A stretch of 64,000 bases of DNA from an uncultured delta proteobacterium. GTDB lineage: Bacteria; Desulfobacterota; SM23-61. Position 1 is the stretch's first letter. The number at the start of each line of letters is the position of its first letter. The notes beneath the pieces are model-generated. The model was not told the DNA's origin, searched no databases, and was given only the letters and a program-made list of their open reading frames with translations. Position numbers and translations under genes: made by a program. This document shows, one piece after another, positions 10,005-64,000 of the stretch. Where the stretch lies: positions 34,798-98,797 of the forward strand of contig CAVQIK010000008.1 in the NCBI GenBank assembly GCA_963712535.1, given 5' to 3'.

Positions 10005-10162
10005 AAGGTTACTCCTCACCGAATGATTTCCGCGCAGAGACGCGGGGCCGCAGAGAATTCATCGGAGACCTCGTTGAAGAATAATCGTCTCCATCCCAGC
10101 GGCGCTGCGGAACAGGTTATGAGCTCTGAAGTTTCTGCCTCGACGGCCGGGGACTCCGCGCG

Positions 10163-11038: not shown

Positions 11039-11321
11039 GATTTGTCGCCCTTTTCTGGTACCGGCAGGCGGAGGCATTTCGGAGTCCTGCAATTCTTAGG
11101 GTAATAGGGATGCATCCGGAAGAAAATAAGGTCAAGTCGTTATTTTCGTCGGAAAAGGCATGCAGGGAAATTATTTTTCCCCTGCAAATATCCGTGTTTT
11201 GCACCTTCGGGGTCCAATTGGACAGGAAGGGGAAAAGGAGGGCCGTCCAGCCCGGAAGACCCCCCTCTCCGTCGCAGGAGAGGGGGGTTGAGGCCGACTC
11301 ATGGGGATGTGTCCGTATTTC

Positions 11322-48529: not shown

Positions 48530-49195
48530 ATGAAAAAGGAAACAGGCTTTTGTTTCGCAGTCATCCTCATCCTTTCCGGGCTTATATTCATGGCCGGCTG
48601 CGCCGGGAGCAGAACGTACCTGCTTCACCTCTCCTACGACGCCTCGCGCACTCCCCCGTTCTGGGGAGGCGGGGCGCGGCCGATGACCGTGGCGCTGTAC
48701 CAGTTTCAGGACGTCCGGCCCGATCGTCTTTACCTGGGCCGCAGGGTGTACCGGGACGGCAAGGCGGATTTTTTCAAACCCGACGAGGGAACGGTCGAGC
48801 AGGTGATCACGCGATCGGTGGTGAAGATCATGGAGAGAGCCGGCTTCAAAGTGGCCGTGGTGAATCGCGCTTTAAACCCGGACAAGGAAAATTTCCAGGA
48901 GATCCCCGGGGACCTTGCCCTTGGGGGGAAGATTGAGGCCCTGTGGGTGGAGGCCAAGAGCGGGTACACCACAACGGACACCGATGCCCGCCTTCGTCTC
49001 CAGGTGATCTGGGGGCTGCCGCAGGAGCGAAGCTGGATGACGAAGACCATCGAGGGTAGCGCCTCGGAGACCGACCGACCCCTCTACGGGCCGAAATACG
49101 CCGAGACGAAGATCAACCAGGTCCTCCAGGACGGGCTGGACAAACTGCTGAAGGATGAAACCATGCTCCGGGAAAAACTGATGAAGCAGAGGTAG
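48530..49195 (+). CDS. Lipoprotein (YajG-like fold possible)
   Basis: MAGC lipobox, FQDVRP, 221-aa ORF with RBS. Confidence 0.65.
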   Translation: MKKETGFCFAVILILSGLIFMAGCAGSRTYLLHLSYDASRTPPFWGGGARPMTVALYQFQDVRPDRLYLGRRVYRDGKADFFKPDEGTVEQVITRSVVKIMERAGFKVAVVNRALNPDKENFQEIPGDLALGGKIEALWVEAKSGYTTTDTDARLRLQVIWGLPQERSWMTKTIEGSASETDRPLYGPKYAETKINQVLQDGLDKLLKDETMLREKLMKQR

Positions 49196-49219
49196 AATTT
49201 CGGGGCATTGCGGATGATG

Positions 49220-49246
49220 AGAAGGCCGGGTTTTCCCCGGCCTTCT
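49220..49246. terminator. Hairpin between convergent genes
   Basis: 11-bp stem AGAAGGCCGGG/CCCGGCCTTCT with a 5-nt loop. Confidence 0.65.
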
Positions 49247-49284
49247 TGTTGTCGGGCCGCCCACGGCGGCGATTCCGCTCACCT

Positions 49285-49497
49285 TCAGGTGAATCGCCCC
49301 GGCCGGGAAGCACATGCGGAATTCGTTCCGCTTTCGCCGGCCTTGGATTCCCCGCAGGAGAAGGAGGAAATAATCACCCGCTGGGGGTCGGCGGCCCCGC
49401 ACTTGGGGCAAACGATCTTCAAATCCTTCTCCGACGCCCCATGGATCATCTCGAACCGGTTGGGACACTTGCAACATTGATACTCATAAATAGGCAC
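49285..49497 (-). CDS. FmdB-family zinc-ribbon protein (possible C-terminal Sec, extension to 49279)
   Basis: MPIYEYQCCKC...FE...CPKCG. Ends RFT-TGA-AGG-TGA. Confidence 0.85.
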   Translation of the reverse strand: MPIYEYQCCKCPNRFEMIHGASEKDLKIVCPKCGAADPQRVIISSFSCGESKAGESGTNSACASRPGRFT

Positions 49498-49583
49498 AGA
49501 TTACCTCCATAAAAAAATGTGAGTTGGGAGTTGGGAGTGATAGGACCGATCCATCCGATCAACTCCCTTTCATTATTTTGGCT

Positions 49584-49745
49584 TTACCCTAAAGCCATCA
49601 GCAACCCGATCAACGCCCCGAAAATCACGGTGAGATACGGGTTGCAGGTGAGGCCTCAAGCGCTTCCGGTTTTCGCGGAAACGAGGCTCAAGCCGTATCC
49701 CACCGCGGCTCCAATCGCCAGCCCGGCAATAATTTTTAAACTCAT
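49584..49745 (-). CDS. Small two-helix membrane selenoprotein candidate, DUF6132-like (not in ORF track)
   Basis: MSLKIIAGLAIGAAVGYGLSLVSAKTGSA-TGA(49658-56)-GLTCNPYLTVIFGALIGLLMALG*, directly downstream of trxA. Confidence 0.7.
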
Positions 49746-49761
49746 GAGTTTCTCGCCGTCC

Positions 49762-50094
49762 TTATAAGGCCTTTTTGACAATGTTTTCAAGCTGGCTCTT
49801 GGGAACCGCCCCCACCACCTGGTCAAAGATCTTTCCGTCCTTGAACATGATCAGCGTGGGAATCCCCCTCACGCCGTAACTGGCCGGGGTTTTCGGGTTC
49901 TCATCGACGTTGACCTTCGCGAACTTGATCTTGTCTGAATACTGGGTGCAGAGCTCTTCAAAGATGGGTCCGATCATCCGGCACGGCCCGCACCAGGACG
50001 CCCAGAAATCGACGATGGTGGGTTGTCCCGACTCCAGGACTTCTTTTTGGAATGAAGCGTCGGTTACGGCGATAGGCCCGGTTCCCTCCCCCAT
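49762..50094 (-). CDS. trxA: Thioredoxin
   Basis: VDFWASWCGPC, KVNVDE, VRGIPTL. Confidence 0.96.
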   Translation of the reverse strand: MGEGTGPIAVTDASFQKEVLESGQPTIVDFWASWCGPCRMIGPIFEELCTQYSDKIKFAKVNVDENPKTPASYGVRGIPTLIMFKDGKIFDQVVGAVPKSQLENIVKKAL

Positions 50095-50295
50095 AGTGTC
50101 CTCCTTCGTGCAATTTCTCTAACAAAAAATTACTCTTTAGGTGCCCCGATTCCAGAAAAGATTCACCCAAAGAAAATTTCTTATGCTCAGATCAATTTTA
50201 TCAAACACTCTCCGTTATAAGAAGAAAAAAGGCCCGTGGCCGCACGGCTGCGTTCGGCTCTTTTTCGTGCCCTTCTTCTCAATTTCATGGCTTTC

Positions 50296-51246
50296 TTAAG
50301 TTGGCGGACCCTTCCCTCCGCCGAAGAGCTGGGGCATCCTCGACAGGATCTTCATGTCTCCCTTCACCTTGTACAGGCCGTCCATGAGCGCCTTGGGCCG
50401 GTCAATTTCTCCCCGCGCGATCTTCACCCAGACGTCTGCGGGGCATTCGATCGTGAGTGCAGGGGAAACTGACTCCCCCGCGGAGACTGCGCAGCGCCCT
50501 TCCGCTATGGAGAGGACCCACTTCCCGCCGCCCTCCCCCGAAATGTCGAACTGGATTTCGGCCCGCAGGTCTCCGGCGGCGGCAGGGTTGAAAGAATCGG
50601 GCATCCCCTCGATCAGCTTATCCGCCGAGGCGGGAACTCTGGCCGCAGCTTCCGGGCTGACCCGGTATTTTCTTTTCAGATAGAAGGGAGGATATATTCT
50701 GGAAAATACGACCCCGATTCCGATGCACAGGGCGAAGGGGATCACGATGGAGTAAAGAGGCCTTCCGCGACCCAGGGAACTCGAAAGAAAGCAGGCAAAA
50801 AAGATTCCGGCCCAGACATAGCTGATGCGGTAGTTGATCAGCCGGAAATCGGGCGCACCCCAGACCGATGGAGGATACCACTGCCGCGCGACCGCATAGG
50901 TGAACGGCTCATAACCCAGCAACTGGGGCAAAAGGCTCATCAGGAAAAGGGTGAAATAAAGAAAGGCCACCGAGTTGTCGACGAAAACGCGGGCGACGTT
51001 TTCCGGGAAACCATAAACCCAGACGGTTCCCGCAAGGAGAAAGCCCAGGAATGCTTTTTCGAGGTAGGTGTTGTATTTCAGGATCCTTCGCGCGCCCACG
51101 TATTGAAACAAAGCCAGGAAGAGCCCGATGACGACCGCAGCCTTGGCCTGTCCCCAGGTGGCGTCTCCCACCCGGGCGATGATCTTAAAAGCCGCGACGG
51201 GCAGGAAAGAAGTCACAAATAGCACCTTTTCCAAGTTCCGCGGCAT
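50296..51246 (-). CDS. Membrane protein with C-terminal SCP2 sterol-binding domain
   Basis: About 6 TM helices with EPFT...AR, then MPDSFNP.AAG.L.AEIQF.ISGEGGG.W...G...K.AL.M.G..KV.GD. Confidence 0.8.
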   Translation of the reverse strand: MPRNLEKVLFVTSFLPVAAFKIIARVGDATWGQAKAAVVIGLFLALFQYVGARRILKYNTYLEKAFLGFLLAGTVWVYGFPENVARVFVDNSVAFLYFTLFLMSLLPQLLGYEPFTYAVARQWYPPSVWGAPDFRLINYRISYVWAGIFFACFLSSSLGRGRPLYSIVIPFALCIGIGVVFSRIYPPFYLKRKYRVSPEAAARVPASADKLIEGMPDSFNPAAAGDLRAEIQFDISGEGGGKWVLSIAEGRCAVSAGESVSPALTIECPADVWVKIARGEIDRPKALMDGLYKVKGDMKILSRMPQLFGGGKGPPT

Positions 51247-51333
51247 CTCCCCCTCCTGGGTTGAGGGTTTGAACCCTTTTTCCTGTTAGGATCATCCAAC
51301 CTTAACAAAAACCGGGGAAGGAAACTAGTCAAA

Positions 51334-51528
51334 ATGGAGAAAAGCGGCCGGAAAGATCTTGAAGAAGAACTGGCAAAGCTGAAGGCCGAGTTGAAGGAGC
51401 GGGAGTTAAGCCTCCCGGCTCATTCGATCCGCCCGCATCAGCTGTCAGCCATCGAAGAGCTCGAGAACCAAATCCGCAGCCTGCAGGATCAGCTAAGTCT
51501 CCTTCCCCCGCACAATTCCGGCGATTGA
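51334..51528 (+). CDS. Small coiled-coil hypothetical protein
   Basis: 64-aa ORF with LPAHSIRPHQ between two heptad helices. Confidence 0.65.
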   Translation: MEKSGRKDLEEELAKLKAELKERELSLPAHSIRPHQLSAIEELENQIRSLQDQLSLLPPHNSGD

Positions 51529-51535
51529 AAGACAG

Positions 51536-51700
51536 ATGAACTGCATCCGCCACCCGGATCGACCCGCCTTTTCCGTTTGCCTGAAACACAACCGGGGTTA
51601 CTGTCAGGAATGCTGCGCCTGCGCGGACCCCAAAGGGCACTGTAAATTCCGTACCCGGTGCATCGCCTGGCAGATCTGCCGGAAAAAAAGAAAAAATTGA
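51536..51700 (+). CDS. Small Cys-rich (B-box-like) protein, not in ORF track
   Basis: MNCIRHPDRPAFSVCLKHNRGYCQECCACADPKGHCKFRTRCIAWQICRKKRKN, 9 Cys and 3 His, starting 7 nt after the upstream stop. Confidence 0.65.
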   Translation: MNCIRHPDRPAFSVCLKHNRGYCQECCACADPKGHCKFRTRCIAWQICRKKRKN

Positions 51701-51881
51701 CCGGAGAGAACAATATCAGGGAATAGCTCCACACGCAAGAGCGCAGAGGAAAAAGGTTAGAAAATCCTTCCCCCATTGCGGCTTGCGACTTCGCCCTCAC
51801 AACGCCACCCCCGCGCCGGAAAGGCCTCGTTCCTTGCCCGGGGAGCCTCAACCACAAGACAAAATCGCCTTCGGATTTCTC

Positions 51882-51918
51882 TTGACAAGGTTTTACCTAA
51901 AGCATATATGTCTAGACA
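51882..51918 (+). promoter_or_regulatory. Sigma70-type promoter with overlapping palindromic GntR/HutC-type operator
   Basis: TTGACA at 51882-87, TATATG 17 nt later, and TGTCTAGACA palindrome at 51909-51918. Confidence 0.55.
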
Positions 51919-52169
51919 ACTGATCCCCGCCGGGGGCCTCTCGGGACCTCGACGATCTTCCGAGAGGCAGCAAGCATCAGGGATGCGGCCACAAGAAGAA
52001 AGCTGCAAGAGGGGACATGGATCAAAATGGCCGGCTGGAATTTTCTTCCGAGTGGCGCGGGGGCCGTGAACGATTCAAACCTGGACAAGGATGCCAAGAA
52101 GGGAGGTGATCGAAGGAGCAGTTTTTTTTCATAGCGTAGGAAGCAGCAGCACTCATGAGGAGGCGAGAT

Positions 52170-53264
52170 ATGGAAGGAAAACAGGCTAAAATTCCTTTTT
52201 TTGAGCAGACGGCCGTAGGCAAGCTGAAGCAAAAAATTTACGCAATGTCGGACGCGCAAATCGATCAGCTCTTGAAAGAATACGCCATCCCATCCCCCGG
52301 CGAAATGGAAAAACCGGGGAGTTACATTCAGAACACCACCCGAAAAGAACTCGTAGAGTCTCGCCGCAGGAACGACGTCGTCATTGTCCCCGTAGGATCG
52401 ACGGAAAATCACGGCCCCCATTCGGTGAGCGGCCACGATACCCTGCAGGTCTGCCGTATCGCCGAAGCGGTTCGGAGGAAAACCGGAAAATCGGGGGCTC
52501 CCATTCATATCGCCTATCCCCTTAACTATGGCTGTCATCCGCCGTGGCATCAGGGGATGTTCGGGACGGTCATGGTCAACGATGAAGCCTTCGAACAATC
52601 CATCATGCAGGTCATGTACGGCCTTTGGAACGACGGCTTCCGGAAACAGATCTGGATCAATAACCACGCTCACCAGAACGAATTGGAGAAGGCCGTCAAA
52701 CGGTTCCTGAATACATACCAGCTTCCGGGCTTCTACCTCGCTCTGGAGTGGACCCGTGCCGTCCGGGAATTCTTCGAAACGGAGGAATTTGGCGGGAAAT
52801 TCGCCACCCGTTTCGTCCACGCGGACGAGGCCGAAACCGCCTTCGCCCTCCTGCTTTTCCCGGAAATGATCAAGATGGAGTACGTGGTGGATACGGGAAC
52901 CCTGGCCGATTTCAAATACCTTCCTGCGGGCCATTTCGACCTCTCGGCGGAAGACTTGAACCGTCCCAACACTTACAAAACCCGGGCCGGAGACCTTCCT
53001 CTCGAGGTGGTGGCCACTCCGGAAGGAGTGGTGGGAAAAGCCTCCATCGCGACGGCCGACAAAGCCAAGAGGGTGATTGCGGCCATCTGCGAATATCTCG
53101 TCCTCCTGCAGGACGAGATATTAAAAACCTGGCCGGTGGGCAGCGTTCCTGATCCGGAAAAGACCACCTTCCGAACCAATGCGGAAATGGCGCCGTACCT
53201 GAAAGAGCCCGGCACCAAGGGATGGAAATCGGCCTATTCCTTGCCGCGGATCGGTCCCTATTAG
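52170..53264 (+). CDS. Creatininase-family hydrolase, IolN (3-dehydro-scyllo-inosose hydrolase)-like
   Basis: IVPVGSTENHGP, GTVMVNDEAF, WNDGFRKQI, HADEAET, EVVATPEGVVGKA...A.KAK, KEP...GW recall Thermotoga IolN across its length. Confidence 0.8.
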   Translation: MEGKQAKIPFFEQTAVGKLKQKIYAMSDAQIDQLLKEYAIPSPGEMEKPGSYIQNTTRKELVESRRRNDVVIVPVGSTENHGPHSVSGHDTLQVCRIAEAVRRKTGKSGAPIHIAYPLNYGCHPPWHQGMFGTVMVNDEAFEQSIMQVMYGLWNDGFRKQIWINNHAHQNELEKAVKRFLNTYQLPGFYLALEWTRAVREFFETEEFGGKFATRFVHADEAETAFALLLFPEMIKMEYVVDTGTLADFKYLPAGHFDLSAEDLNRPNTYKTRAGDLPLEVVATPEGVVGKASIATADKAKRVIAAICEYLVLLQDEILKTWPVGSVPDPEKTTFRTNAEMAPYLKEPGTKGWKSAYSLPRIGPY

Positions 53265-53380
53265 AAAAACAGCGCCGTTCCATTTCCGCAAGCCTGCTCA
53301 AATCGAATCTGGAAATCCGAAGAAAAAAGATCTGACCGGCATTCGGAAAACCGGAAATTCAAAACTACAGGAGGGTAGCG

Positions 53381-54457
53381 ATGAAAAGAAAGGCGACTAG
53401 GGCGTTTTTCGTGGGGGCAACATTCGTAGCCTTCGTTTTCGTTCTGGGGACTTTTGCAATGGCCCAGCAACCGGTCAAACTCAAGATGACGTCCTTCCTT
53501 CCTCCTCCAGAGGTTTCCATGCTGGCCGAGATTGCCAAGATATGGCAGGAGGAAGTGACCAAACAGACCAAAGGCGGCATCACCTTTGAGAACTACTGGG
53601 GAGGGGCCATGGCCAGCCCGGCCGAGCACATCGAGCTCGTCAAAAAGGGGACGGTGCAGTTGGCCCAGACTCACCAGTGGTACACCCCGGGCAAGTTCCC
53701 CATCGGGCATTTTGAGTATGTGTTCCCTTTCGGACCGATCGATTATGAGGTGGTGGCCAAGTCCATGCGGCAGATGCGCACGGAATTTCCGGAGTTTGCC
53801 CGAGACGAGGCCAAGGAGAACGTCATCATCCTCAGCACGCCTCCGGGCGGTGTGTACACCATGCTCGCCAAGAAGCCCATCAACACGGTGGACGGATTTA
53901 AGGGAGAAAAAGTGGCCCTGATCGGGCGATTCTTCGGAAAATGGCTTCCCCCCGGGGCGCAGGCCGTCGTCCGTCCGGGCGGGGAACGGTACGACCTTCT
54001 TCAAGGCGGGGTGACGTCGGTAAACATCGACCCATTCGATCTGATGTATGCCTTCAAGCTGGCCGAACAGGCGAAATACCACCTGGGCATTAATCTGACG
54101 ACGGCCTGCTGGGCCCACACGATGATGAATCTGGATACCTTCAAGAAGCTTTCTCCGGAATACCAGAAGATCCTCGTCGAAACGGGGAAAGAGATGGAAG
54201 TGAAGTCGGCCAAAGAGATCGTCCCCAAATGGTGGGACCGGGTCCAGAAGGAATGGAAAGCCAAGGGGGTTACCGAGGTCGATTTCCCCAATTCGGAGAT
54301 CATGAAATGGGCCGCGACTTTGGAGGATGTGCCGGCTCAATTTGCCGCCGAGATCGAGGGCAAAGGGTACCCGGGGTTCAAGATGATGGAGCGTTGGCAG
54401 GAAATCACCGCCAGCCATGGATTTAAATGGGCCCGGAAATGGGCGGTTAAGAAATAG
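53381..54457 (+). CDS. dctP: TRAP transporter substrate-binding protein
   Basis: Signal peptide, ITFENYWGGAM, ELVKKGTVQL, PF, DGFKG.K, YDLLQGG. Confidence 0.88.
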   Translation: MKRKATRAFFVGATFVAFVFVLGTFAMAQQPVKLKMTSFLPPPEVSMLAEIAKIWQEEVTKQTKGGITFENYWGGAMASPAEHIELVKKGTVQLAQTHQWYTPGKFPIGHFEYVFPFGPIDYEVVAKSMRQMRTEFPEFARDEAKENVIILSTPPGGVYTMLAKKPINTVDGFKGEKVALIGRFFGKWLPPGAQAVVRPGGERYDLLQGGVTSVNIDPFDLMYAFKLAEQAKYHLGINLTTACWAHTMMNLDTFKKLSPEYQKILVETGKEMEVKSAKEIVPKWWDRVQKEWKAKGVTEVDFPNSEIMKWAATLEDVPAQFAAEIEGKGYPGFKMMERWQEITASHGFKWARKWAVKK

Positions 54458-54530
54458 ACGAGATGGCCTCCTCTTGCGAAGGGGGACGATTCATTTCGCC
54501 CCCCTTCCCGGAGGCCCCAAGGAGATCCCC

Positions 54531-55049
54531 ATGACTTTGAATCAATTTGACCGAGGGATCATAAAAATCGAGAAGGCCCTCACTGCCGTTTCCTGGATCG
54601 TGACCATCGCCGTTACGGTCATGATCGTTACCGATATCGTGATGCGGTTCTTTTTCGACCATCCTCTCCCGGCGACGTGGGAGATCAGCGAAGTATGCAT
54701 GCCGGCCATCGTGTTCATGGCCTTCGCCTATACGTTGACCATGGACCAGCACGTGAAGATGTCCCTGGTCAAGGAACGAGTTCCCCCCAAAGTTCAGGTG
54801 ATATTTGAGATGATCACCAATCTAATTTCCTTCGCCCTGTGCGCCCTCATCACCTACTGGTCCTGGCTGCGGTTCAAAACTTCATTCGCGACCGGCGAGG
54901 AAATCCTTGCGGCGATTTACGTTCCCTGGTGGCCGGGGAAAATCATGATGCCCATCGGCATGGGATTCCTGACCCTGCGCTACCTGATGAAATTTGTCAA
55001 TAATTTCGCCCACCAGGACGTTGAAAAAAATCCGCTGGTGGGGGGATGA
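54531..55049 (+). CDS. dctQ: TRAP transporter small permease
   Basis: 4 TM helices, DIVMRFFF..PL..TWEI, HVKM.L. Confidence 0.88.
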   Translation: MTLNQFDRGIIKIEKALTAVSWIVTIAVTVMIVTDIVMRFFFDHPLPATWEISEVCMPAIVFMAFAYTLTMDQHVKMSLVKERVPPKVQVIFEMITNLISFALCALITYWSWLRFKTSFATGEEILAAIYVPWWPGKIMMPIGMGFLTLRYLMKFVNNFAHQDVEKNPLVGG

Positions 55050-56392
55050 ACATGGATCCATTCACGATTGGTTTACTGGGAGCGCTTCTCTTATTCGCGC
55101 TGCTGGCCATCGGCACCCACATCGGTATCGCCCTCGCCCTCTCGGGGTTTCTGGGGGTGGTCTTCATGTCCGGGTTCGAGCAGGCTATCACCATGAGCGT
55201 GAGCGCCATCTACCACAAGGTTTCCGGCCCGGCGCTGATCACCCTTCCCCTGTTTATCCTGATGGGGTACCTGGCCAGCGGGGGCGGAATCAGCGGGGCC
55301 CTGTATGACAGCCTCGCCCTCTGGCTGGGAAAATTTCGGGGAGGGCTGGGAATCGCCACGGTTTGGGCCTGCACGGCCTTCGGGACCGTCTGCGGGTCCT
55401 CCATCGTCACCACGGCCGTTTTCGGCAAAACCTGCGCCCCCGAGATGCGCCGCCACGGGTATTCCAAAGCGATGTCCTATGCCATCTGCGCCTCCGCGGG
55501 ATCGATCGGAATGCTGATCCCGCCGAGCATCCTGGCCATCGTTTACGGGATGCTCAGCGGCATTTCCATCGGCAAAGTACTGATGGCCGGGGTGATGCCC
55601 GGGCTCATATGGGCGGTCCTCTTCAGCCTCGCCGTCCTGATCATGCCTAAAATAAAGCCCAAATTCATCGAGAGAGATCCCTATCTTCAGAACGCGACCT
55701 GGCGCCAGCGGATCGTCAGTCTGAAGACCTGGTGGCCCATCGCCCTGGTCGCCGGAGCGATGTTCGGGGGGATTTACGGAGGGATCTTCACTCCCAGTGA
55801 AGCGGCGTCCGTGGCCGCCTTCGTGATGATTGTCTATTACGTGTTCATCAAGATCCTGCCCAGCCGGGGGGCCAAGCGGAAGGAAAGCCTGCGGGATTTC
55901 AAAACCATCATGACCGATACGGCCACCACATCCGCCCTGGTCTTCCTGATCCTGGGGGCGGCGACCATCTTTTCCAATTTTACCGTGTTGACCGGCATGA
56001 CCAATTCGATTTCCCGGTTGGTAAAAGAGTGGGGGCTTTCTCCGATGACCCTGATTTTGCTGTTCAGCGTCATTTATTTGATTCTGGGCTGTTTCCTGGA
56101 CAGCATCTCCATGCTCTGCATCACCATCCCGGTGTTCAATCCCATCATCCAGCAGGCCGGGATCGACCCGATCTGGTATGCCACCATCGTCATCGTCTCG
56201 GTGGAGATCGGTCTCATTACTCCCCCTGTAGGGATGAATCTCTATGCTGCGAAAGGGGTAGCGGAACCGGACGTCAGCCTGGAGGATATCATCAGCGGCA
56301 TCATTCCTTTCCTGGTCGCGGAGGTCGTAAGCCTGATTCTTTTCCTGTGTTTCCCCATTCTGAGCACCTACCTTCCCAGTTTCGTGGGGTGA
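55046..56392 (+). CDS. dctM: TRAP transporter large permease
   Basis: LITLPLFILMG, CGSS, GSIGMLIPPS, GIFTPSEA, IGLITPPVGMNL. Confidence 0.95.
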   Translation: MNMDPFTIGLLGALLLFALLAIGTHIGIALALSGFLGVVFMSGFEQAITMSVSAIYHKVSGPALITLPLFILMGYLASGGGISGALYDSLALWLGKFRGGLGIATVWACTAFGTVCGSSIVTTAVFGKTCAPEMRRHGYSKAMSYAICASAGSIGMLIPPSILAIVYGMLSGISIGKVLMAGVMPGLIWAVLFSLAVLIMPKIKPKFIERDPYLQNATWRQRIVSLKTWWPIALVAGAMFGGIYGGIFTPSEAASVAAFVMIVYYVFIKILPSRGAKRKESLRDFKTIMTDTATTSALVFLILGAATIFSNFTVLTGMTNSISRLVKEWGLSPMTLILLFSVIYLILGCFLDSISMLCITIPVFNPIIQQAGIDPIWYATIVIVSVEIGLITPPVGMNLYAAKGVAEPDVSLEDIISGIIPFLVAEVVSLILFLCFPILSTYLPSFVG

Positions 56393-56436
56393 GGCCGGAT
56401 GAAAAAAAGCCCCCCTTGGGACCAGGTTGAGAAGAA

Positions 56437-57258
56437 ATGAGGATTCCGGAAAAATTTGACGTTCGCAGCGGGGTTCGGGCCAGCATGGCGCAAGCAAGGG
56501 GTTCTCGCATGATGCACAAAAACCTGGGGGAGATCGTCAAGGGGATCCCCATTCCTCTCTATTATCAGATCACTGACCTTATCCTGCGCAGCATCGAGAA
56601 GGGAAAATATCGGCCCCATCAGCAGATCCCCACGGAAGAACAGCTTACCGCGAATTTTCAGGTGAGCCGGATGACCGTCCGCCAGGCAATCAATAAGCTG
56701 GTGAGCGACGGCGTGCTCTACCGCCGGCGGGGGCGGGGGACTTTTGTGGGGGACCCGAAGATCGAACGCAAGGTGGCCAAATTATCGAGCGTGGCCGAAG
56801 ACATGAGGAGGGCGGGGTTAAAGCCGGGTTCGATCATCCTGGAAAGGAAAATTGTTCATCCCACGGAAGAAGAACGGAATGTTCTGAATCTGAAACCGGA
56901 AGAAACGGTGTTGGAGATCAAACGTCTGCGCACGGCCAACGACCAGCCCATCGCCATCGGCCGCACCCTGATCCCGGTGAGCCTTTATCCCGGACTGGTG
57001 AAAGAAACATTTTTGGGGGTCGTGTCCTTGACCCAGCTTTTGAAGAAGAAGTACGGCCTCAAAATCGATTATGCTTATCAGAAAATCCAGGCGGTGAATG
57101 CCACCGAAAACCAGGCCCGGATTTTAAAAATCAAAAAAGGCACATCCCTTCTTCACATGAACCGAGTGTTTGTCAATCCCAACCAGACCCCGATCGGGAT
57201 CTTTGAAACATACTATCGCGGCGATCGATACATCTTCACGTCCACCTTGTATCCGTGA
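56437..57258 (+). CDS. GntR-family regulator, HutC subfamily (UTRA domain)
   Basis: PLYYQI, IPTEEQL...FQVSRMTVRQAI, RRRGRGTFV, and a UTRA-type C-terminus. Alternative start at 56509. Confidence 0.92.
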   Translation: MRIPEKFDVRSGVRASMAQARGSRMMHKNLGEIVKGIPIPLYYQITDLILRSIEKGKYRPHQQIPTEEQLTANFQVSRMTVRQAINKLVSDGVLYRRRGRGTFVGDPKIERKVAKLSSVAEDMRRAGLKPGSIILERKIVHPTEEERNVLNLKPEETVLEIKRLRTANDQPIAIGRTLIPVSLYPGLVKETFLGVVSLTQLLKKKYGLKIDYAYQKIQAVNATENQARILKIKKGTSLLHMNRVFVNPNQTPIGIFETYYRGDRYIFTSTLYP

Positions 57259-57343
57259 AAGGCGGAGCGACACCGCGGTTTTTCAGCCCAGAATGCGAGC
57301 CGGAAACAAGGATCGCACATTAAAAAACCGAAAGGAGAAAAAA

Positions 57344-58202
57344 ATGAGTCAGACCAAACCGAACAACCTCATCGATTGCAGCCAGGTGGATGTCAAGGAT
57401 TGGCTGAAAGAGACCGACATCTGTCTGGTCCCCATCGGCAGCTGCGAGCAGCACGGCAACCATCTTCCCTTGCGGACCGACACCATTACCGCCGAGGTGA
57501 TCGCGGGCCGGGCGGCCAAAAAGGCCAACGTCCCCCATACGCCCGTGGTCTGGTGCGGCTATTCCCCCCAGCACATGCGACCCGTGGGCAGCGGCGCCGG
57601 AACCATTACCTTCCGTTCGGCGACCTTCCAGGCCCTCCTCTATGACATCGGCCGGAGCCTGATCCACCACGGCTTCAACAAGATCATCTACGTCACCGGG
57701 CACGGGTCGAACATCAAAGTCCTCGACCCCATGCTCCGCAACCTCCGCTACGAAACCGGCGCCTTTATCGCCATGTACAAGGCCTATTCGGAACGGGACC
57801 TCTCCCTGGTGCAGGATATCATCGAAAACCCCAAGGAAGAAACCCCGGGCTGGCACTGCAGCGAGATGGAAACCGCCCAGGACATGGCTTTTAACATGAA
57901 ACTGGTGCGCATGGACCGGGCGGTGGATCAGACGGACCCATGCGCCCACCTGGATGGGGCAGGCTTTCTCCAAGCAGGACGGCTCGTCGGGGGTCACCTT
58001 TCAAAGGCAGGAATACATCGTCATCCCCATGGAGCATCATGAGTACAGCGATGTCGGGGTCGTGGGAAATCCCTTCCGGGCCACGGCGGAAAAGGGAGAG
58101 AAACTGTTCGAGCGGTTCTCCAACTACCTGGTGGATTTCCTCGCCGAGGTCCGCAAAATCAAGGTGGAGGTTAAGAACCGGGAATTTACCAGCCGGGGAT
58201 AA
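57344..58202 (+). CDS. Creatininase-family protein (one frameshift ~57940)
   Basis: LVPIGSCEQHGNHLPLRTD, GTIT, VTGHGSN, WHCSEMET, GVVGNPFRATAEKGE. Confidence 0.88.
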
Positions 58203-58328
58203 AGATCAGCACGGTTCAATTCATCTCCCGATGCCCTGCGAACCCGTGACGGTCCGGGACCATTCATCCCCTCAGGAGCCGATCGCTCCTGGGGGTCATC
58301 TTGTCGATCAGCAGCGGAAAGGATTTTC

Positions 58329-59096
58329 ATGAAAATTTTGGATAAATTCAATCTGGATGGAAAAGTGGCGCTGGTCACCGGGGCCAGCCGGGGACTCGGC
58401 CAGGGGATGGCTCTCGCCCTGGGAGAGGCGGGGGCGAAGGTCGCCCTGGTCGCCCGGACGAAATCCTCCCTGGAAGAGACGGGCCGAATGATCTCCCAAG
58501 CGGGGAGCAAGGCTCACATCATTCCGGCCGACCTGTCCCAAATTGAGGAACTTCAGCGAGTGGTCGGGGAAACCGTCGCCCAATTCGGAAAAGTGGACAT
58601 TCTCATCAACGCAGTGGGCACGCAAGTCCGTAAGCCGGCCGTCGAGATTGTCGAACAGGAATGGGAACACTTGATCGGAGTGAACCTGAAATCTGTTTAT
58701 TTTCTTACCCAGGCCGCGGCGAAGGAGATGATCAAGGCCAAGAAAGGGAAGATCATCAACATTACGTCGCTGACCAGCTTTATCGGCCTGTCCAACGTCA
58801 GCATCTACGGGGCGAGCAAGGGGGGAATCCTCACCCTCACCCGGCAGTGGGCCGTCGAGTGGGCCAAGTACAACATCAATGTCAACGCCATCGGTCCTGG
58901 GTATTTCAAGACCGCCCTCACCGCCGATTTGTTCAAGGATCCCGAAAGATCGAAATGGGTGTTGAACAAGATCCCGCTGGGAAGGACCGGCTTGCCCGAA
59001 GATTTGGCGGGGACAGCGGTATTCCTCGCTTCCGAGGCTTCGGATTACATCACCGGGCAGATTATCAACGTAGACGGCGGCTGGCTGGCCAGTTAA
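58329..59096 (+). CDS. SDR oxidoreductase (KduD/gluconate 5-dehydrogenase-like)
   Basis: TGASRGLG, VNLKSVYFL, YGASKGG, NVNAIGPGYFKT, IP.GR.G.PEDL.G.AVFLAS. Confidence 0.9.
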   Translation: MKILDKFNLDGKVALVTGASRGLGQGMALALGEAGAKVALVARTKSSLEETGRMISQAGSKAHIIPADLSQIEELQRVVGETVAQFGKVDILINAVGTQVRKPAVEIVEQEWEHLIGVNLKSVYFLTQAAAKEMIKAKKGKIINITSLTSFIGLSNVSIYGASKGGILTLTRQWAVEWAKYNINVNAIGPGYFKTALTADLFKDPERSKWVLNKIPLGRTGLPEDLAGTAVFLASEASDYITGQIINVDGGWLAS

Positions 59097-59114
59097 ATAA
59101 ACCAGGAGGTTGAA

Positions 59115-60656
59115 ATGGAGAAGTTTGAAGCCCCCTACTTGTTGGGGATCGATGTGGGTACCACAGGTTGCAAAACGGAATTGATGGACGTCAAGGGGAG
59201 CTCGGCGGCCCGGGCCTACCGGGAGTATCCCCTCATTTTCCCGAAAGTTTCCTGGGTGGAGCACGATGGGGAAGCCGGATGGTGGAAGGCGACGGTGGAT
59301 ACCGTTCAGGAGGTGCTCCAAAAAAGTAAAATCGATCCAAAGGATATCAAAGGCATATCCATCAGCTGCACCAACGCCCTCGTCGCGGTGGACAAGGAGG
59401 GGAATCAGCTCCGTCCGGCCATCATGCAGTTCGACAAGCGGACCATCGATCAGGTGCAGGGCATTAAAACCAAGCTGGGAGACAAGGTCATCAAGATCAC
59501 CGGGAACCAGCCTTCCGCCAGCGGCACGAGCGCTCCGATCATCCTGTGGATGAAGGAGAACGAGCCGGAGATTTTCAAGAGGACCCATTATTTTCTCTGG
59601 CCGGGCGGTTTCGTCAATTACAAGCTCACCGGCGAATTCAACATGGAGTGGTCCCGCGCGAGCTGGACGTGCCTCTTTGAAACCGGTGGAAACAAGAGCT
59701 GGTCCAAGGAAATCTGCAACACCCTGGATATTCCCATGGAAAAACTTCCTCCCCTGGTCCCCTCCTGGAAGATCATCGGAGGGATCACGGAGAAAGCCGC
59801 TAAGATCACCGGCTTGGCCAAAGGGACCCCGGTCGTCGGCGGAATGGCCGACACCCCGGCAGCTGGCATCGGCACGGGCTGCGTGGCTCCGGGCAGGACC
59901 TGCCAGATCATCGGGACGACGGCCCGGCCGTCGGTGACCCTGGACAAGCCCATCTTCGACCCCCGATTCATTAACTGTTGCCATGGGGTCCCCGACTGCT
60001 GGTTCTCGCTCGGAGCGGTGGACAACGCGGGTCTTTCGATCAAGTGGTTCCGGGACCAGTTCGGCCAGCAGGAAGTCAGCATGGCCAACTTGATGAAGCG
60101 GAACGCCTTCGACCTTCTGGACGAGGAAGCCGCCCTTTCTCCCGCCGGGGCCAACGGGATTATCTTTCTCCCCTATCTTGCGGGAGAACGCTCCCCCATT
60201 TGGGACCCCTATGCCCGCGGGGTGTTGTTCGGGTTGTCCGTGACCCATACCCGGGCGGACATCATCCGGGCGGTCCTGGAAGGCGTGGCCTACACTTTCG
60301 CCCACAACCTGGAGATCTTCGAGGGCGACATGGGGATGAAGATGGACGAGGTCTTCCTGAGCGGCGGCGGATCGAAGAGCCTTATGTGGCAGCAGATGCA
60401 CGCCGATGTCTCCGGAAAAGTGGTCAAAGTGGTCAAGGTGAAGGAGAGCGAGGCGATCGGCAACAGCATCCTCGCCGGGTTCGGGGTCGGCATCTACAAA
60501 AACATGGTCGAAGCGGCCGACCGCGTGATCAAGATCGAAAAAGTCGTGGAGCCGATCCGGGAGAATGTGGATCGGTACAAGAAGTTCTTCCAGCTTTATA
60601 AGAAACTGTATGCCCACCTTAAGGACGACTTCTTGGAATTGGCCCGTTTGAGGTAA
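59115..60656 (+). CDS. FGGY-family carbohydrate kinase (xylulokinase-like)
   Basis: LGIDVGTTGCK, GGMAD, LPYLAGERSP.WDP.ARG, RAVLEGVA, SGGGSKS. Confidence 0.92.
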   Translation: MEKFEAPYLLGIDVGTTGCKTELMDVKGSSAARAYREYPLIFPKVSWVEHDGEAGWWKATVDTVQEVLQKSKIDPKDIKGISISCTNALVAVDKEGNQLRPAIMQFDKRTIDQVQGIKTKLGDKVIKITGNQPSASGTSAPIILWMKENEPEIFKRTHYFLWPGGFVNYKLTGEFNMEWSRASWTCLFETGGNKSWSKEICNTLDIPMEKLPPLVPSWKIIGGITEKAAKITGLAKGTPVVGGMADTPAAGIGTGCVAPGRTCQIIGTTARPSVTLDKPIFDPRFINCCHGVPDCWFSLGAVDNAGLSIKWFRDQFGQQEVSMANLMKRNAFDLLDEEAALSPAGANGIIFLPYLAGERSPIWDPYARGVLFGLSVTHTRADIIRAVLEGVAYTFAHNLEIFEGDMGMKMDEVFLSGGGSKSLMWQQMHADVSGKVVKVVKVKESEAIGNSILAGFGVGIYKNMVEAADRVIKIEKVVEPIRENVDRYKKFFQLYKKLYAHLKDDFLELARLR

Positions 60657-60726
60657 GCTCGGGGGCGGGCCTCAGGCCTCCCCCTTCTTGGACGCTTAAC
60701 GCTTCGCAAAATTCAGAACTCCATGA

Positions 60727-60849
60727 ATGCCACGGACCGGGGAATCCAGGACAATTTCCTGGATTCCCGCCCTGGCGGAAATGATGGGCGTGTCGGGGGC
60801 CGTGTTGCTGATCATCGGCGTCCGGCTGATGTTCTACCGGCTGCCGTAA
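60727..60849 (+). CDS. Possible 40-aa single-TM peptide
   Basis: MPRTGESRTISWIPALAEMMGVSGAVLLIIGVRLMFYRLP fills the gap between the kinase and HAD genes. Confidence 0.3.
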   Translation: MPRTGESRTISWIPALAEMMGVSGAVLLIIGVRLMFYRLP

Positions 60850-60876
60850 GACCCGGGCAAAGAGGATGGAAGCGGA

Positions 60877-61515
60877 ATGATGAAAGGTGCGCTCTTCGAT
60901 TGGGACGGGACCCTGCTCAACTCCGAGCCCTGGCTGTTTCGGATTTGGGAAAAGGCGCTCGAATCGCTGGGCCGCACCATCGATGAATCCACCTTCCGGG
61001 GGCTCGTCGGGCTGGTCGCGCGCGATATCGCCGTTACGCTTTATCCCGAAGATTCCCCCGAGACGACTGATTTGATCCTGCGCCGCCGGCTCGAAGCGTA
61101 TGAAGAATTCTACAACCAGGCAAAGCCGTATCCGGATGCGGAAGAATGCCTCGAGGGCCTCTTCCGCCGGGGTTACGCCATGGCCGTTATGACTTCCAAT
61201 TCCGCCGCCCGGGTCCGTGGCTGGCTCGAGAAATTCAAGTGGGATAAATTCTTTCAGGGGGTGGTCGGAGAAGGAATGGTCGCCGAGGCAAAGCCCAGCC
61301 CGCAAATCGTCCAGGCGGCGGCCCGAATGATATCCCTTTCCCCCCAGGAATGTTATGTGATTGGCGATGCTAAATGGGATATCGTCGCCGGCATTCGGGC
61401 GGGCGCAACTACCGTCCTGATCTGCCGGGAAGAGACCAAAGCGAAGGAGCTGATGGCCTTTCATCCTCATTACTGCATAAAAGACTTTCGGGAACTGCTG
61501 GGAATAATCAATTGA
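60877..61515 (+). CDS. HAD-family phosphatase
   Basis: FDWDGTLLNS, MTSN, KPSP, IGDAKWDI.AG..AG. Confidence 0.92.
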   Translation: MMKGALFDWDGTLLNSEPWLFRIWEKALESLGRTIDESTFRGLVGLVARDIAVTLYPEDSPETTDLILRRRLEAYEEFYNQAKPYPDAEECLEGLFRRGYAMAVMTSNSAARVRGWLEKFKWDKFFQGVVGEGMVAEAKPSPQIVQAAARMISLSPQECYVIGDAKWDIVAGIRAGATTVLICREETKAKELMAFHPHYCIKDFRELLGIIN

Positions 61516-61534
61516 ATTCTCTGTGGACCACGAA

Positions 61535-61654
61535 ATGCCGGATCAAAATGCAAAGAACACCGTCCTGATTATCATCACCTTGGACACCAAGAGTGAGGAG
61601 GCGAAATACCTCAAGGAATGGATTATGGAGGACCCTTTCCTCCGATCCCGATGA
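61535..61654 (+). pseudogene. N-terminal remnant of UPF0261 (Tm-1-like) protein
   Basis: VLIIITLDTKSEEAKYLKE matches the TLDTK.EE..YL motif and stops after 39 codons. Confidence 0.6.
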
Positions 61655-61827
61655 GAGGATAGGCTCGCCGGGGCCCTCGGGCTTGAGCTGAAAAACATAG
61701 CCGAGTTGGTGGCCGAAATGATTTGAGGCAAGGCAAGATCGTCGCCCGTTGTCAACCTGAGGCCATAGGATGATGAATTTACCCTTCCATACCAAGCCGA
61801 GGCAAGGCAAGCTTTAGGAGAAGGATC

Positions 61828-62628
61828 ATGAGAAAATGGGTCGAGCTGTCGCAAAAATGCAAGGAAATACTTTGCCTGGAAGGCTCTCCCGTTGCGGTCA
61901 GTCTTCGTAGGGAGCCCTTAACCGGAGTGGAGACCCCGAAAAAGGAGTTTACTTTTTGCCAGTTTACCCAGCAGGCCCGGGTGAAAAGGAAAGTTCTCCA
62001 GGGTACGGCGGAGAATTTGATCTGCTGCAAGGGCGCCAGTGCGCTCGGATTGTATGCGACCCCTCCTGGCGTGATGAGCGGGAAGCGGGACGCCGGCCGG
62101 AAGGTGAAAGACCTCCAGGCGGCCGAAACCCTGCAGAAGGAAATTCCGAAGATTTCGCCGGGAAAATTCCAGACCGTTATCGTCGCGCCCCTGGAAAAAA
62201 CCCCGGTGGACCCTGATGTCGTCCTGATCTTCGGCTATCCGGCCCAGATCTGGCGAGTGGCCCAGTCCGCCACCTGGAAGGACGGAAAAAGGCTAACCTT
62301 TACCACCAGCACGAGCCAGGGGGTATGCGCGGACGGGGTCGTTGTACCGTTTCTGAATGAGGGACTGAACGTAACCCTGGGCTGCACGGGGATGAGGGTG
62401 TTTGCCGGGGCCAGCGAACACCACCTCGTGGCCGGCCTGGCCCGGAAGAAATTTCTTGAGATGATGGAAGGATTGGAAGCAACAAGCTCCCGCGATTATA
62501 CTTACCCGATCCCTTACGAAACGTATGAGGCAACTCCGCAGCTTCCCCGGGCATGGACGATCATGCGGCGGATACCGCCGGAAGTGTTAGCCAACCTGCC
62601 CAAAGAGATTCAGGACATCCTAAAATAG
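61828..62628 (+). CDS. DUF169 family protein
   Basis: L.LEGSPVAV, FCQ, C.GA..LG, C.D...P, TLGC.G.R, and YPIP. Confidence 0.85.
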   Translation: MRKWVELSQKCKEILCLEGSPVAVSLRREPLTGVETPKKEFTFCQFTQQARVKRKVLQGTAENLICCKGASALGLYATPPGVMSGKRDAGRKVKDLQAAETLQKEIPKISPGKFQTVIVAPLEKTPVDPDVVLIFGYPAQIWRVAQSATWKDGKRLTFTTSTSQGVCADGVVVPFLNEGLNVTLGCTGMRVFAGASEHHLVAGLARKKFLEMMEGLEATSSRDYTYPIPYETYEATPQLPRAWTIMRRIPPEVLANLPKEIQDILK

Positions 62629-62644
62629 AAAACAAGGCGCTTTT

Positions 62645-64000
62645 ATGCCGGATCTGGTTTGTCCCGTGTGCGGCCAACCTTCTCTTTCTTCCGAATTGCA
62701 TAAAAGGCTTATCGCCGCGGCCGGCCGAAAAGGGATCGCGGACACCTCCTTTCTGCTTGTTTGTCGGGACTGCAAACTGAAATCCTTCAGCCGGAATCTG
62801 GTGGGGAGAGAACTTCGGAAGGTCCCCCGGGCAAAACCCCTCGCGGTGCGGCGAAAGGAAAGACTTGAGCCCGTCAAGCAGGACTCCCGCCTGGGCACGA
62901 CGGTTTATAAATCCGAGTGCTTCAGCTGCAACCAGGGATGCGACGCCGTGGTCCATGTGAAGGAAGGGAGAGTGGTCCGGGTGGAAGGGGACGCAAGCTC
63001 CCATGTCACCCAAGGGATCCTTTGTACCAAGGGCCTCGCTTCTCCGGAGCACATCCACCACCGCGATAGAATCCTGTACCCGCTGAAGAGGGTGGGGGCG
63101 AGGGGCCAAAACCGTTGGGAGCGCATCTCCTGGGAGGAAGCCCTCGACGCCATCGTGGCCCGGCTGAACGAGACCGAGAAGAAGTACGGCAAAGACGGGA
63201 TTATGCTCGCCACGGGGACTTCCCGCGGTTGGCTCCTGCCCTTTTACCGCTTTGCCAATGCCTACGGAGTTCAATATACGGCCCCGGGCACAGCCCAGTG
63301 TGCCCTGCCCCGCTTCACCGCCAGCACTCTGGTGGGCGGCACGAGATTTTTGGAGAACCCCGATTACGCCCATACGGAGTGCATGCTCATCTGGGGAGCG
63401 AATCCCACCTCCACCTTCCCCGCCAAGGGCCGGGGCATGATGGAGGCTTGGACCCGGGGAGCGGCGCTGATCGTGGTCGATCCCATGTTGACCGAGGCCT
63501 CCTCCAAGGCGGACCTCTGGCTCAACCTTCGGCCGGGGACGGATGCAGCCCTCGCCTTGGGCATGATCAACCTCATCATCGAAGAAGAATTATATGACCG
63601 GACGTTTGTAGAAAAGTGGTGCCATGGTTTTGAAGGATTGAAGAAAAGGGCGGCGGAGTTCCCCCTGGAGAAAGTCTCGGAAATCACCTGGGTCCCCAAG
63701 GAGAAGATCGCCGAAGCCGCCCGGCTCTACGCAACCCGCAAGCCTTCCTCCATCACGATCGTAGTCGCGATCGAGCAGAACGCCGACTCTCTTTCCACGT
63801 GCCGGGCCATCGCCATGCTGGCAGGGCTTACCGGGAACATCGATGTTCCCGGCGGAAACCTCATCCAAATGCCCGTCCCGGTGGGTCTCTGGTTGAAAGG
63901 GGACCTGGCCCTCAACAACATTCTTACGGAGGATCAGCACGAGCGGCGGCTCGGAAGCGGGAAGTACCCTCTCCTTTCGGGAAAACACAGCGTTTCTTTT
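62645..64000 (+). CDS. Molybdopterin oxidoreductase (acetylene hydratase-like), partial, with N-terminal CxxC...CxxC extension
   Basis: Single open frame from ATG 62645 to the window end: CFSCNQGC...LCTKG [4Fe-4S] motif, RILYPLKR, WERISWEEALD, WGANP, VVDP..T, LRPGTD.ALALG, TGNIDVPGG. Confidence 0.88.
   Translation, partial: MPDLVCPVCGQPSLSSELHKRLIAAAGRKGIADTSFLLVCRDCKLKSFSRNLVGRELRKVPRAKPLAVRRKERLEPVKQDSRLGTTVYKSECFSCNQGCDAVVHVKEGRVVRVEGDASSHVTQGILCTKGLASPEHIHHRDRILYPLKRVGARGQNRWERISWEEALDAIVARLNETEKKYGKDGIMLATGTSRGWLLPFYRFANAYGVQYTAPGTAQCALPRFTASTLVGGTRFLENPDYAHTECMLIWGANPTSTFPAKGRGMMEAWTRGAALIVVDPMLTEASSKADLWLNLRPGTDAALALGMINLIIEEELYDRTFVEKWCHGFEGLKKRAAEFPLEKVSEITWVPKEKIAEAARLYATRKPSSITIVVAIEQNADSLSTCRAIAMLAGLTGNIDVPGGNLIQMPVPVGLWLKGDLALNNILTEDQHERRLGSGKYPLLSGKHSVSF

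Follow-up and report, generated by a model that had tools for sequence, protein, structure and literature searches.

A 64,000-nucleotide stretch of one contig from an uncultured delta proteobacterium, an anaerobic sediment bacterium, was analysed here. We call the whole stretch the window; coordinates are positions in it, and its contig runs 2.2 kb past its end. Between 52170 and 62628 lie ten genes that encode a hydrolase related to IolN, the DctP, DctQ and DctM proteins of a tripartite ATP-independent periplasmic (TRAP) transporter, a GntR-family regulator, a second hydrolase of the creatininase fold (hereafter Cre2), a short-chain dehydrogenase/reductase (SDR), an FGGY carbohydrate kinase, a HAD-IA phosphatase and a DUF169 protein. 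Domains were taken from a Pfam scan and families from an NCBIfam scan with curated cut-offs. Together with the listing of open reading frames, these scans bear out the gene set given in an initial annotation of this DNA, in that all ten genes are present on the plus strand with the domains it named. From the IolN-like gene through the FGGY kinase gene the intergenic gaps are at most 123 bp; 220 bp then precede the HAD gene and 312 bp the DUF169 gene. GC content is uniform over the cluster region. Our tentative reading is that the locus forms one catabolic cluster, whose products would take up a cyclic compound resembling a polyol (a cyclitol or an inosose, for example), subject it to oxidoreduction, open its ring by hydrolysis and phosphorylate what results.

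Two creatininase-fold hydrolases

The first gene of the cluster (52170-53264, plus strand) starts with an ATG at 52170 that is preceded by AGGAGG, and encodes a 364-residue protein of the creatininase fold (PF02633). The protein scores 301.7 bits on NF041098, the equivalog model for IolN (3-dehydro-scyllo-inosose hydrolase), against a cut-off of 245, and in a whole-genome search it alone among the six creatininase-family genes of this genome exceeded that cut-off. When scores and neighbours were compared across 55 related genome loci, canonical forms of about 320 residues reached 524-558 bits, long forms that retain LacI, zinc-dependent alcohol dehydrogenase (Zn-ADH) and IolO-like neighbours 324-326 bits, and the clade of the window protein 297-310 bits. 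The creatininase-fold motifs E-x-H-G, D-T, N-H and H-A-D-E-x-E-T are found in it and align to creatininase residues, and the motifs TENHG, HADEAET and EGVVGKAS are common to this protein and canonical IolN-type proteins, unlike Cre2. A quick maximum-likelihood tree (IQ-TREE) of 66 proteins, with no experimentally characterised reference sequence among its rows, places it inside a 50-row IolN clade (SH-aLRT 100%) on a divergent long branch. There it belongs to a 22-row long-form sub-clade together with Atribacterota and KSB3 proteins that have Zn-ADH and IolO-like neighbours. The equivalog score, the tree placement and the motifs therefore uphold the proposal of the initial annotation that this gene clusters with IolN. 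Judged by its sequence, the first hydrolase is a true, divergent, long-form member of the IolN clade.

The gene neighbourhoods of IolN-like genes are informative about usual partners. A Zn-ADH gene directly adjoins the IolN-like gene in 23 of 48 loci, and a gene for an IolO-like TIM-barrel protein (AP_endonuc_2) lies within 5 kb in 16 of the 48. Elsewhere in the long-form branch the neighbours are Zn-ADH, joined by IolO-like epimerases in one sub-branch and, in that of the window protein, by transketolase. The IolN-like genes that are 69-77% identical to the one studied here, from Desulfobacterales, Rhodospirillales and related groups, are flanked by genes for an XRE-cupin regulator, a full-length transketolase, a Zn-ADH and a beta-hydroxyacid dehydrogenase (loci L010, L011, L013-L016 and L028, with the IolN-like gene at about 10001-11092 in most). 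None of these four partners is encoded inside the window, and an orthologue of the clade's transketolase was not found in the genome, whose completeness is estimated at 75.6%, a value that bounds all genome-wide absences reported here. The transketolase-flanked loci could represent a transketolase-dependent use of 5-keto-L-gluconate, of which we found no published description.

The second hydrolase gene, Cre2 (57344-58202, plus strand; PF02633), carries a +1 frameshift. DNA alignment against three orthologues locates one extra base at about 57927-57930; the frame ends in unrelated residues, the conserved C-terminus sits in a second frame, and the genome-wide match splits at residue 196. Conservation remains high on either side of the break, at 75-87% identity to intact orthologues, so that the frameshift is a mutation of recent date or, as is likely, an error in the assembly. 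The window copy of Cre2 scores 68-87 bits on the models for creatininase, MftE and IolN and passes none of them (creatininase TIGR04448, 87 versus 235 bits; MftE TIGR03964, 79 versus 172 bits). An intact orthologue scores 106 bits on the creatininase model and 94 bits on the MftE model, also below the cut-offs. Cre2 has its own family motifs, distinct from those of the IolN clade. The phylogeny of both hydrolases that the initial annotation had proposed thus separates them, with the first inside the IolN clade and Cre2 in another clade of 14 rows (97% support) together with hydrolases that adjoin UPF0261 genes. Cre2 is therefore not a duplicate of the IolN-like protein and belongs instead to a different, unnamed subfamily with conserved partners of its own.

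The Cre2 family is small, with 75 proteins at E<=1e-30 among 1.84 billion representative proteins; a search of the ESM Atlas matched only generic creatininase-family clusters. Of 401 sampled genomes of the phylum, 19 carry Cre2-like genes, which usually adjoin UPF0261. They are accompanied either by Zn-ADH, class II aldolase, LacI and sugar ATP-binding cassette (ABC) transporter genes, or by an FAD-linked oxidase and a CCG-domain protein. Two further Cre2-like copies, about 50% identical to Cre2, are found in the same genome. One lies in a full module on contig C14 (210143-216320) with Zn-ADH, CCG protein, FAD oxidase, Cre2-like protein, UPF0261 and a radical SAM protein. The other is on contig C19 (79354-84576), in the order Cre2-like, Zn-ADH, GHMP kinase, UPF0261 and SDR. 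No gene for a UPF0261 kinase, an FAD-linked oxidase or a CCG-domain protein is present in the window. Activity has been demonstrated for UPF0261 in one case, that of an ATP-dependent kinase acting on phenolic ketones (PMC12624787). The phosphatase of the acetovanillone pathway, HpeD/AcvF, was considered as a possible creatininase-family protein; it is of the NagD-like HAD type, so it provides no link to Cre2.

Transporter, carbohydrate enzymes and regulator

The three transporter genes follow the IolN-like gene on the plus strand. They encode the solute-binding protein DctP with its signal peptide (53381-54457; PF03480, 92.8 bits versus a cut-off of 23.4), the small membrane subunit DctQ (54532-55049; PF04290) and the large membrane subunit DctM (55046-56392; PF06808, 298 bits; TIGR00786, 288 versus 268 bits). 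The start of dctQ was read from the sequence together with its ribosome-binding site, and is probably at 54532, after AGGAGA; the longest open reading frame begins at 54417. The best equivalog matches of the membrane subunits are weak, with DctQ scoring 20 versus 260 bits on YiaM and DctM 151 versus 800 bits on YiaN. Between dctP and dctQ, a GC-rich hairpin (54469-54486) is followed by a T-rich stretch, an element that might raise the amount of binding protein relative to the membrane subunits.

With 80 proteins, the subfamily of the binding protein is small. DctP has a match in 7 of the 401 phylum genomes, its own included, and two of those matches are at least 46% identical. TRAP substrates are nearly always organic acids, the equivalent of Arg-147 of SiaP is found in 96.8% of DctP-type proteins, and proteins without this Arg bind atypical ligands (PMC4646407). 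In the DctP of the window the position is occupied by Ala179, as aligned to three solved proteins and to the paralogues in the genome; of the four alignable paralogues, three keep the Arg and the fourth has Lys. The position is never Arg in the 78 of 78 subfamily members examined, where it is Ser, Ala, Gly, Thr or rarely another residue, and a near-invariant Arg (Arg183 in the window protein) lies four residues downstream. In an AlphaFold2 model of DctP (pLDDT 93.3), Ala179 lies within a strand and Arg183 where the following helix starts. The model has the typical TRAP fold, with a best match at Z 33.8 and a root-mean-square deviation of 2.2 Å over 308 residues. The top 50 structural matches are tied at Z 31-34, so the structure search gives no ligand for DctP. 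Among known TRAP binding proteins, Csal_0678, which binds ethanolamine, and Tp0957 also have no Arg-147 equivalent (PMC4646407). The DctP studied here is like them in that the canonical Arg is replaced, in its subfamily by Ala, Ser or Gly. It differs in belonging to another subfamily and in having the invariant downstream Arg described above.

Orthologous TRAP systems, with binding proteins 45-61% identical, adjoin Cre2-like, UPF0261 and FAD oxidase/CCG genes in genome G173 and on several distant metagenome contigs, and this recurring TRAP-Cre2 link involves two different Cre2 sub-clades. Neither of the Cre2-like modules on contigs C14 and C19 has an Arg-less TRAP system of its own. Other neighbours of the orthologous transporters are Zn-ADH with a cupin protein (six loci), SDR (five loci), and AOR, HIBADH and iron-dependent alcohol dehydrogenase (three loci). 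At the four loci with the closest orthologues (56-61%; L131:5111-7977, L132, L130 and L133) the context is unlike that of the window, comprising genes for creatinase-like M24 proteins (Creatinase_N/M24), LarA-like proteins (lactate racemase N-terminal domain), IclR regulators and esterases. Homologues of the IolN-like protein and of DctP come from metagenomic contigs that agree in length (4160 bp and 6732 bp), an indirect hint that the two genes may be neighbours there.

The SDR (58329-59096, plus strand; PF13561, PF00106) falls just short of two specific models, with 292 versus 339 bits for KduD (TIGR01832) and 267 versus 279 bits for gluconate 5-dehydrogenase (NF006070, PRK08213). Among solved structures KduD and Gno come closest to it, and it is a classical SDR of that group, which we describe as the KduD/Gno (5-keto-gluconate reductase) type. 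The FGGY kinase (59115-60656, plus strand; FGGY_N and FGGY_C domains) is xylulokinase-like. It scores 385.9 bits on the XylB model TIGR01312, barely above the cut-off of 380.25, 205 versus 912 bits on the E. coli-type XylB model, and 266 versus 648 bits on the model for FGGY-type gluconokinases. Orthologues of the kinase that are 43-49% identical are located between Zn-ADH and class II aldolase/epimerase genes. The orthologue in the related genome G364 is 83% identical and comes after Cre2 and the SDR.

The regulator gene (56509-57258, plus strand) encodes a GntR winged helix (PF00392, 75.8 bits) and a UTRA domain (PF07702, 119.2 bits), a combination that puts the protein in the HutC subfamily; all specific NCBIfam matches are below cut-off. 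Its start is likely at 56509, in a reading frame that is open from 56437. A candidate promoter and operator was identified on the plus strand at 51882-51918, where TTGACA (51882-51887) is followed by the perfect 10-bp palindrome TGTCTAGACA (51909-51918), about 260 bp upstream of the start of the IolN-like gene. The palindrome is the sole exact copy in the window and is missing from related loci that have no GntR gene. It resembles operators of the HutC/NagR type, and we suspect that it is the operator of the GntR protein. The cluster is probably a single regulon under this HutC-type repressor. The roughly 900 bp upstream of the first gene (51247-52169) contain no convincing gene, and divergent genes for an SCP2-domain protein and a thioredoxin are located upstream of the cluster. 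Rfam detected no RNA family in 49000-64000, including the leader of about 260 nt, and scans for sigma-70 promoters and terminators returned counts no better than those in shuffled sequence.

Linkage in relatives and interpretation of the cluster

The order to which this genome belongs comprises 17 genomes, all of one family, and 4 of the 17 carry an IolN-like gene. Genes in the relatives were called with a caller weighted on GC at third codon positions, supplemented by tblastn. In G364 the arrangement is Cre2, SDR (80% identical), FGGY kinase (83%) and UPF0261, so that the Cre2-SDR-FGGY unit is kept there at 80-87% identity. In G233 it is IolN-like, Cre2, DUF169 and UPF0261, in G340 Cre2 and then UPF0261, and in G316 a different SDR followed by Cre2, DUF169 and a molybdopterin (Mo/W) enzyme. 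UPF0261 thus comes after the orthologous cluster in G364, G233 and G340. The IolN-like and Cre2 genes are adjacent in G233 and G316, and an M24 gene adjoins Cre2 in G340 and G316.

Remnants of the SDR gene are still present where the gene itself is gone. DNA comparison revealed that 93 bp of its 3' end persist downstream of Cre2 in G340 (L116:3260-3502) and that 37 bp of its start persist in the spacer between Cre2 and DUF169 in G233 (L008:2713-2877) and G316 (L115:2538-2702). These scars indicate that Cre2-SDR-FGGY was the ancestral order and that the other arrangements arose by deletion, G340, G233 and G316 having lost the SDR and FGGY genes and kept Cre2. A possible remnant of the GntR gene in L008 (32 residues, 53%) was dropped after DNA-level comparison did not confirm it. 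With the conserved Cre2-SDR-FGGY order, the adjacency of the IolN-like and Cre2 genes and the TRAP-Cre2 linkage, the cluster is more than a chance assembly.

The closest functional precedent for an IolN-type enzyme is the oxidative myo-inositol pathway of Thermotoga maritima, which consists of IolG, IolM, IolN and IolO (Rodionova et al. 2013, as cited in PMC3750489 and PMC12632266). The window shares with it an IolN-clade protein and possibly the same logic, in which oxidation is followed by hydrolytic ring opening by a creatininase-fold enzyme. The differences are substantial. IolG, an IolM-type Zn-ADH and IolO are not encoded nearby and have no clear orthologue in the genome; uptake in Thermotoga is by an ABC rather than a TRAP transporter; the window adds a hydrolase of a second subfamily, an SDR and an FGGY kinase; and its IolN homologue, a divergent long form, reaches 302 bits where canonical proteins reach about 550. 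The initial annotation had already pointed out that IolG, IolM and IolO are not visible, that uptake is by TRAP and that there are two hydrolases, all of which is true of the window. Its account of the later Thermotoga steps, in which the product of IolN is reduced and then phosphorylated, is correct as to 5-keto-gluconate being that product and inexact thereafter, since in Thermotoga the next step is the epimerisation of 5-keto-L-gluconate to D-tagaturonate by IolO (PMC12632266). TRAP genes amid inositol catabolism genes have been reported in a preprint on Atribacteria (10.1101/536078).

A second precedent is the module formed by a GlcD/GlcF-like oxidase, a UPF0261 (MarK-family) kinase and a creatininase-like hydrolase. 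Cre2 is about 50% identical to the hydrolases of such modules, and the window likewise combines a dehydrogenase, a kinase and a hydrolase. Unlike in the module, the kinase here is of the FGGY type and the redox enzyme an SDR, adjacent genes for UPF0261 and an FAD oxidase are lacking, and an IolN-clade hydrolase and a TRAP transporter are added. By analogy, the cluster may be a non-orthologous variant that combines the Thermotoga oxidative inositol route with this module, in which the SDR would replace the Zn-ADH or the GlcD/F oxidase and the FGGY kinase would replace UPF0261.

If it does act as one pathway, we infer the following scenario. The TRAP transporter would import the compound through the binding protein that has no usual carboxylate-clamping Arg, and the KduD/Gno-type SDR would carry out NAD(P)-dependent oxidoreduction steps. 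The two metal hydrolases of the creatininase fold, IolN-like protein and Cre2, would then open oxidised rings hydrolytically, and the FGGY kinase would phosphorylate the linear keto-acid or ketose product. A phosphorylated intermediate would probably release the repressor from the TGTCTAGACA operator at the promoter. In its most specific form, which we consider quite unlikely, a neutral cyclitol or inosose is imported by the Arg-less TRAP system into an undescribed anaerobic ring-opening pathway, where Cre2 would be a second kind of carbon-carbon ring hydrolase beside IolN. Were the cluster to work in this way, it would offer the first functional handle on the Cre2 subfamily, which recurs in uncharacterised kinase-dehydrogenase-hydrolase modules across phyla. 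It would also extend oxidative ring opening of the IolN type beyond thermophilic fermenters to anaerobic Thermodesulfobacteriota with different partner enzymes. In addition, a TRAP subfamily without the near-universal carboxylate Arg would allow a direct test of the limitation of these transporters to organic acids.

Several observations weigh against a shared cyclitol pathway. Genes of the IolG, IolM and IolO types are absent from the window, and no Zn-ADH gene is found on its contig. The search for iolG and iolM elsewhere that the initial annotation had suggested returned no Bacillus-type IolG above cut-off in the genome (best 133 versus 355 bits), and the best IolM-like Zn-ADHs are only 40-45% identical and located on C14 and C19. 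The best IolO-like match in the genome has 27-30% identity over partial length, and tblastn gave none at E<=1e-15. The nearest relatives of the SDR use sugar acids and not cyclitols, Cre2 is frameshifted in the assembly, and Arg183 may, from its place in the model, have taken over the clamping of a carboxylate. Among solved binding proteins, those nearest to DctP (about 20-23% identity) bind aromatic acids, and the neighbourhoods of orthologous TRAP systems are heterogeneous, including M24, LarA-like, CoA ligase, AOR and aminotransferase genes. The adjacency of the IolN-like and Cre2 genes is confined to one bacterial family. Within it, close relatives retain these two genes without TRAP, SDR or FGGY genes, and therefore the parts can work separately. 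Of the variant inositol or inosose pathway put forward in the initial annotation, the IolN-clade hydrolase stands, the specific tie to inositol is not supported, and the substrate class is something we can only infer.

The explanations that compete with a cyclitol pathway differ mainly in what the transporter brings in and in whether the genes act together. In E. coli, the yiaK-S genes encode the TRAP transporter YiaMNO, a reductase and the FGGY kinase LyxK, and the idn genes encode IdnD, IdnO and IdnK. By analogy with these systems, the TRAP transporter here could import a keto-aldonate or aldonate (of the 5-keto-gluconate, idonate or gulonate type) that is reduced by the SDR and phosphorylated by the FGGY kinase, with the hydrolases acting on lactone-like, lactam-like or cyclic precursors or supplying 5-keto-L-gluconate to the same reductase. 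FGGY kinases that act on keto-aldonates are known, LyxK being one. A TRAP transporter, a Gno/IdnO-type reductase and a kinase would fit the import or formation, reduction and phosphorylation of a 5-keto-hexonate, as in these E. coli systems and with LgnH/LgnI of Paracoccus 43P, where 5-keto-L-gluconate is reduced to D-idonate (PMC12632266). The closeness of the SDR to the gluconate 5-dehydrogenase and KduD models and structures favours this route, as do the near-universal preference of TRAP transporters for organic acids (PMC4646407), the YiaM and YiaN matches, weak as they are, and an invariant Arg183 that could bind a carboxylate. Nevertheless, we consider it somewhat unlikely. There is no orthology to the keto-aldonate systems, as the YiaM and YiaN scores indicate, and the canonical Arg is gone from the whole binding-protein subfamily. 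The kinase matches the xylulokinase model (386 bits) far better than the one for gluconokinases of the FGGY type (266 bits), and its orthologues lie in contexts typical of polyol or ketose use. The window has no dehydratase, decarboxylase or aldolase, the keto-aldonate systems have no counterpart of the hydrolases, and this route leaves two ring-opening-type enzymes without a clear role.

It is also conceivable, though unlikely, that the region is a plastic mosaic of small units placed side by side, with different substrates and no common pathway: an orphaned IolN-like gene, a TRAP-GntR cassette, Cre2 derived from a UPF0261 module, an SDR-FGGY polyol pair, the HAD gene, and DUF169 with the Mo/W enzyme. 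Which of the genes are present, and in what order, differs in each of the five nearest genomes. The usual partners of IolN (Zn-ADH and IolO or transketolase) and of Cre2 (UPF0261 and oxidase) are missing here, the gaps before the HAD and DUF169 genes are long, and the uninformative promoter and terminator scans point the same way. Against such a patchwork, the genes from the IolN-like one to the FGGY kinase share a strand at short spacing, the relatives differ by scarred deletions that point to an ancestral joint arrangement, and the TRAP-Cre2 link recurs in unrelated contigs with two Cre2 sub-clades. Either this mosaic or a plain keto-aldonate route would make the cluster an ordinary one. Very unlikely, in our view, is a substrate with a non-sugar ring, whether a creatinine-like nitrogen heterocycle or lactam or else an aromatic or phenolic molecule, which the TRAP system and the hydrolases would handle with no more than an accessory role for the SDR and the FGGY kinase. 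Creatinase-like M24, IclR, alpha/beta hydrolase, CoA ligase and LarA-like genes beside the closest orthologous TRAPs, the M24 gene beside Cre2 in two relatives, the aromatic ligands of the nearest solved binding proteins and the phenolic ketone substrates of the sole characterised UPF0261 kinase suggest such chemistry. However, Cre2 and the IolN-like protein reach only 62-87 of the 235 bits required by the creatininase equivalog, the Cre2 neighbours conserved in the family are of sugar type (SDR, FGGY), and Cre2-like paralogues occur with LacI, sugar ABC transporter, aldolase and Zn-ADH genes.

Genes at the downstream edge

The last two of the ten genes, which the initial annotation had counted as members of the cluster, appear to have other affiliations. 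The HAD-IA phosphatase (60877-61515, plus strand; PF13419), all of whose equivalog matches are below cut-off, is not kept in the relatives, and no HAD gene comes after the FGGY kinase gene in G364. It is probably peripheral to the cluster. The DUF169 gene (61828-62628, plus strand; PF02596) is coupled to the next gene, which begins 16 bp after its stop codon and encodes a molybdopterin (Mo/W) oxidoreductase (62645-64000, plus strand; PF00384, PF04879) that extends beyond the window and has 776 residues on the contig. DUF169 lies directly 3' of Cre2 in G233 and G316. In G316 the pair of DUF169 and the Mo/W oxidoreductase is kept (L115:1115-2537), directly after Cre2, and in G233 UPF0261 rather than the Mo/W enzyme comes after DUF169.

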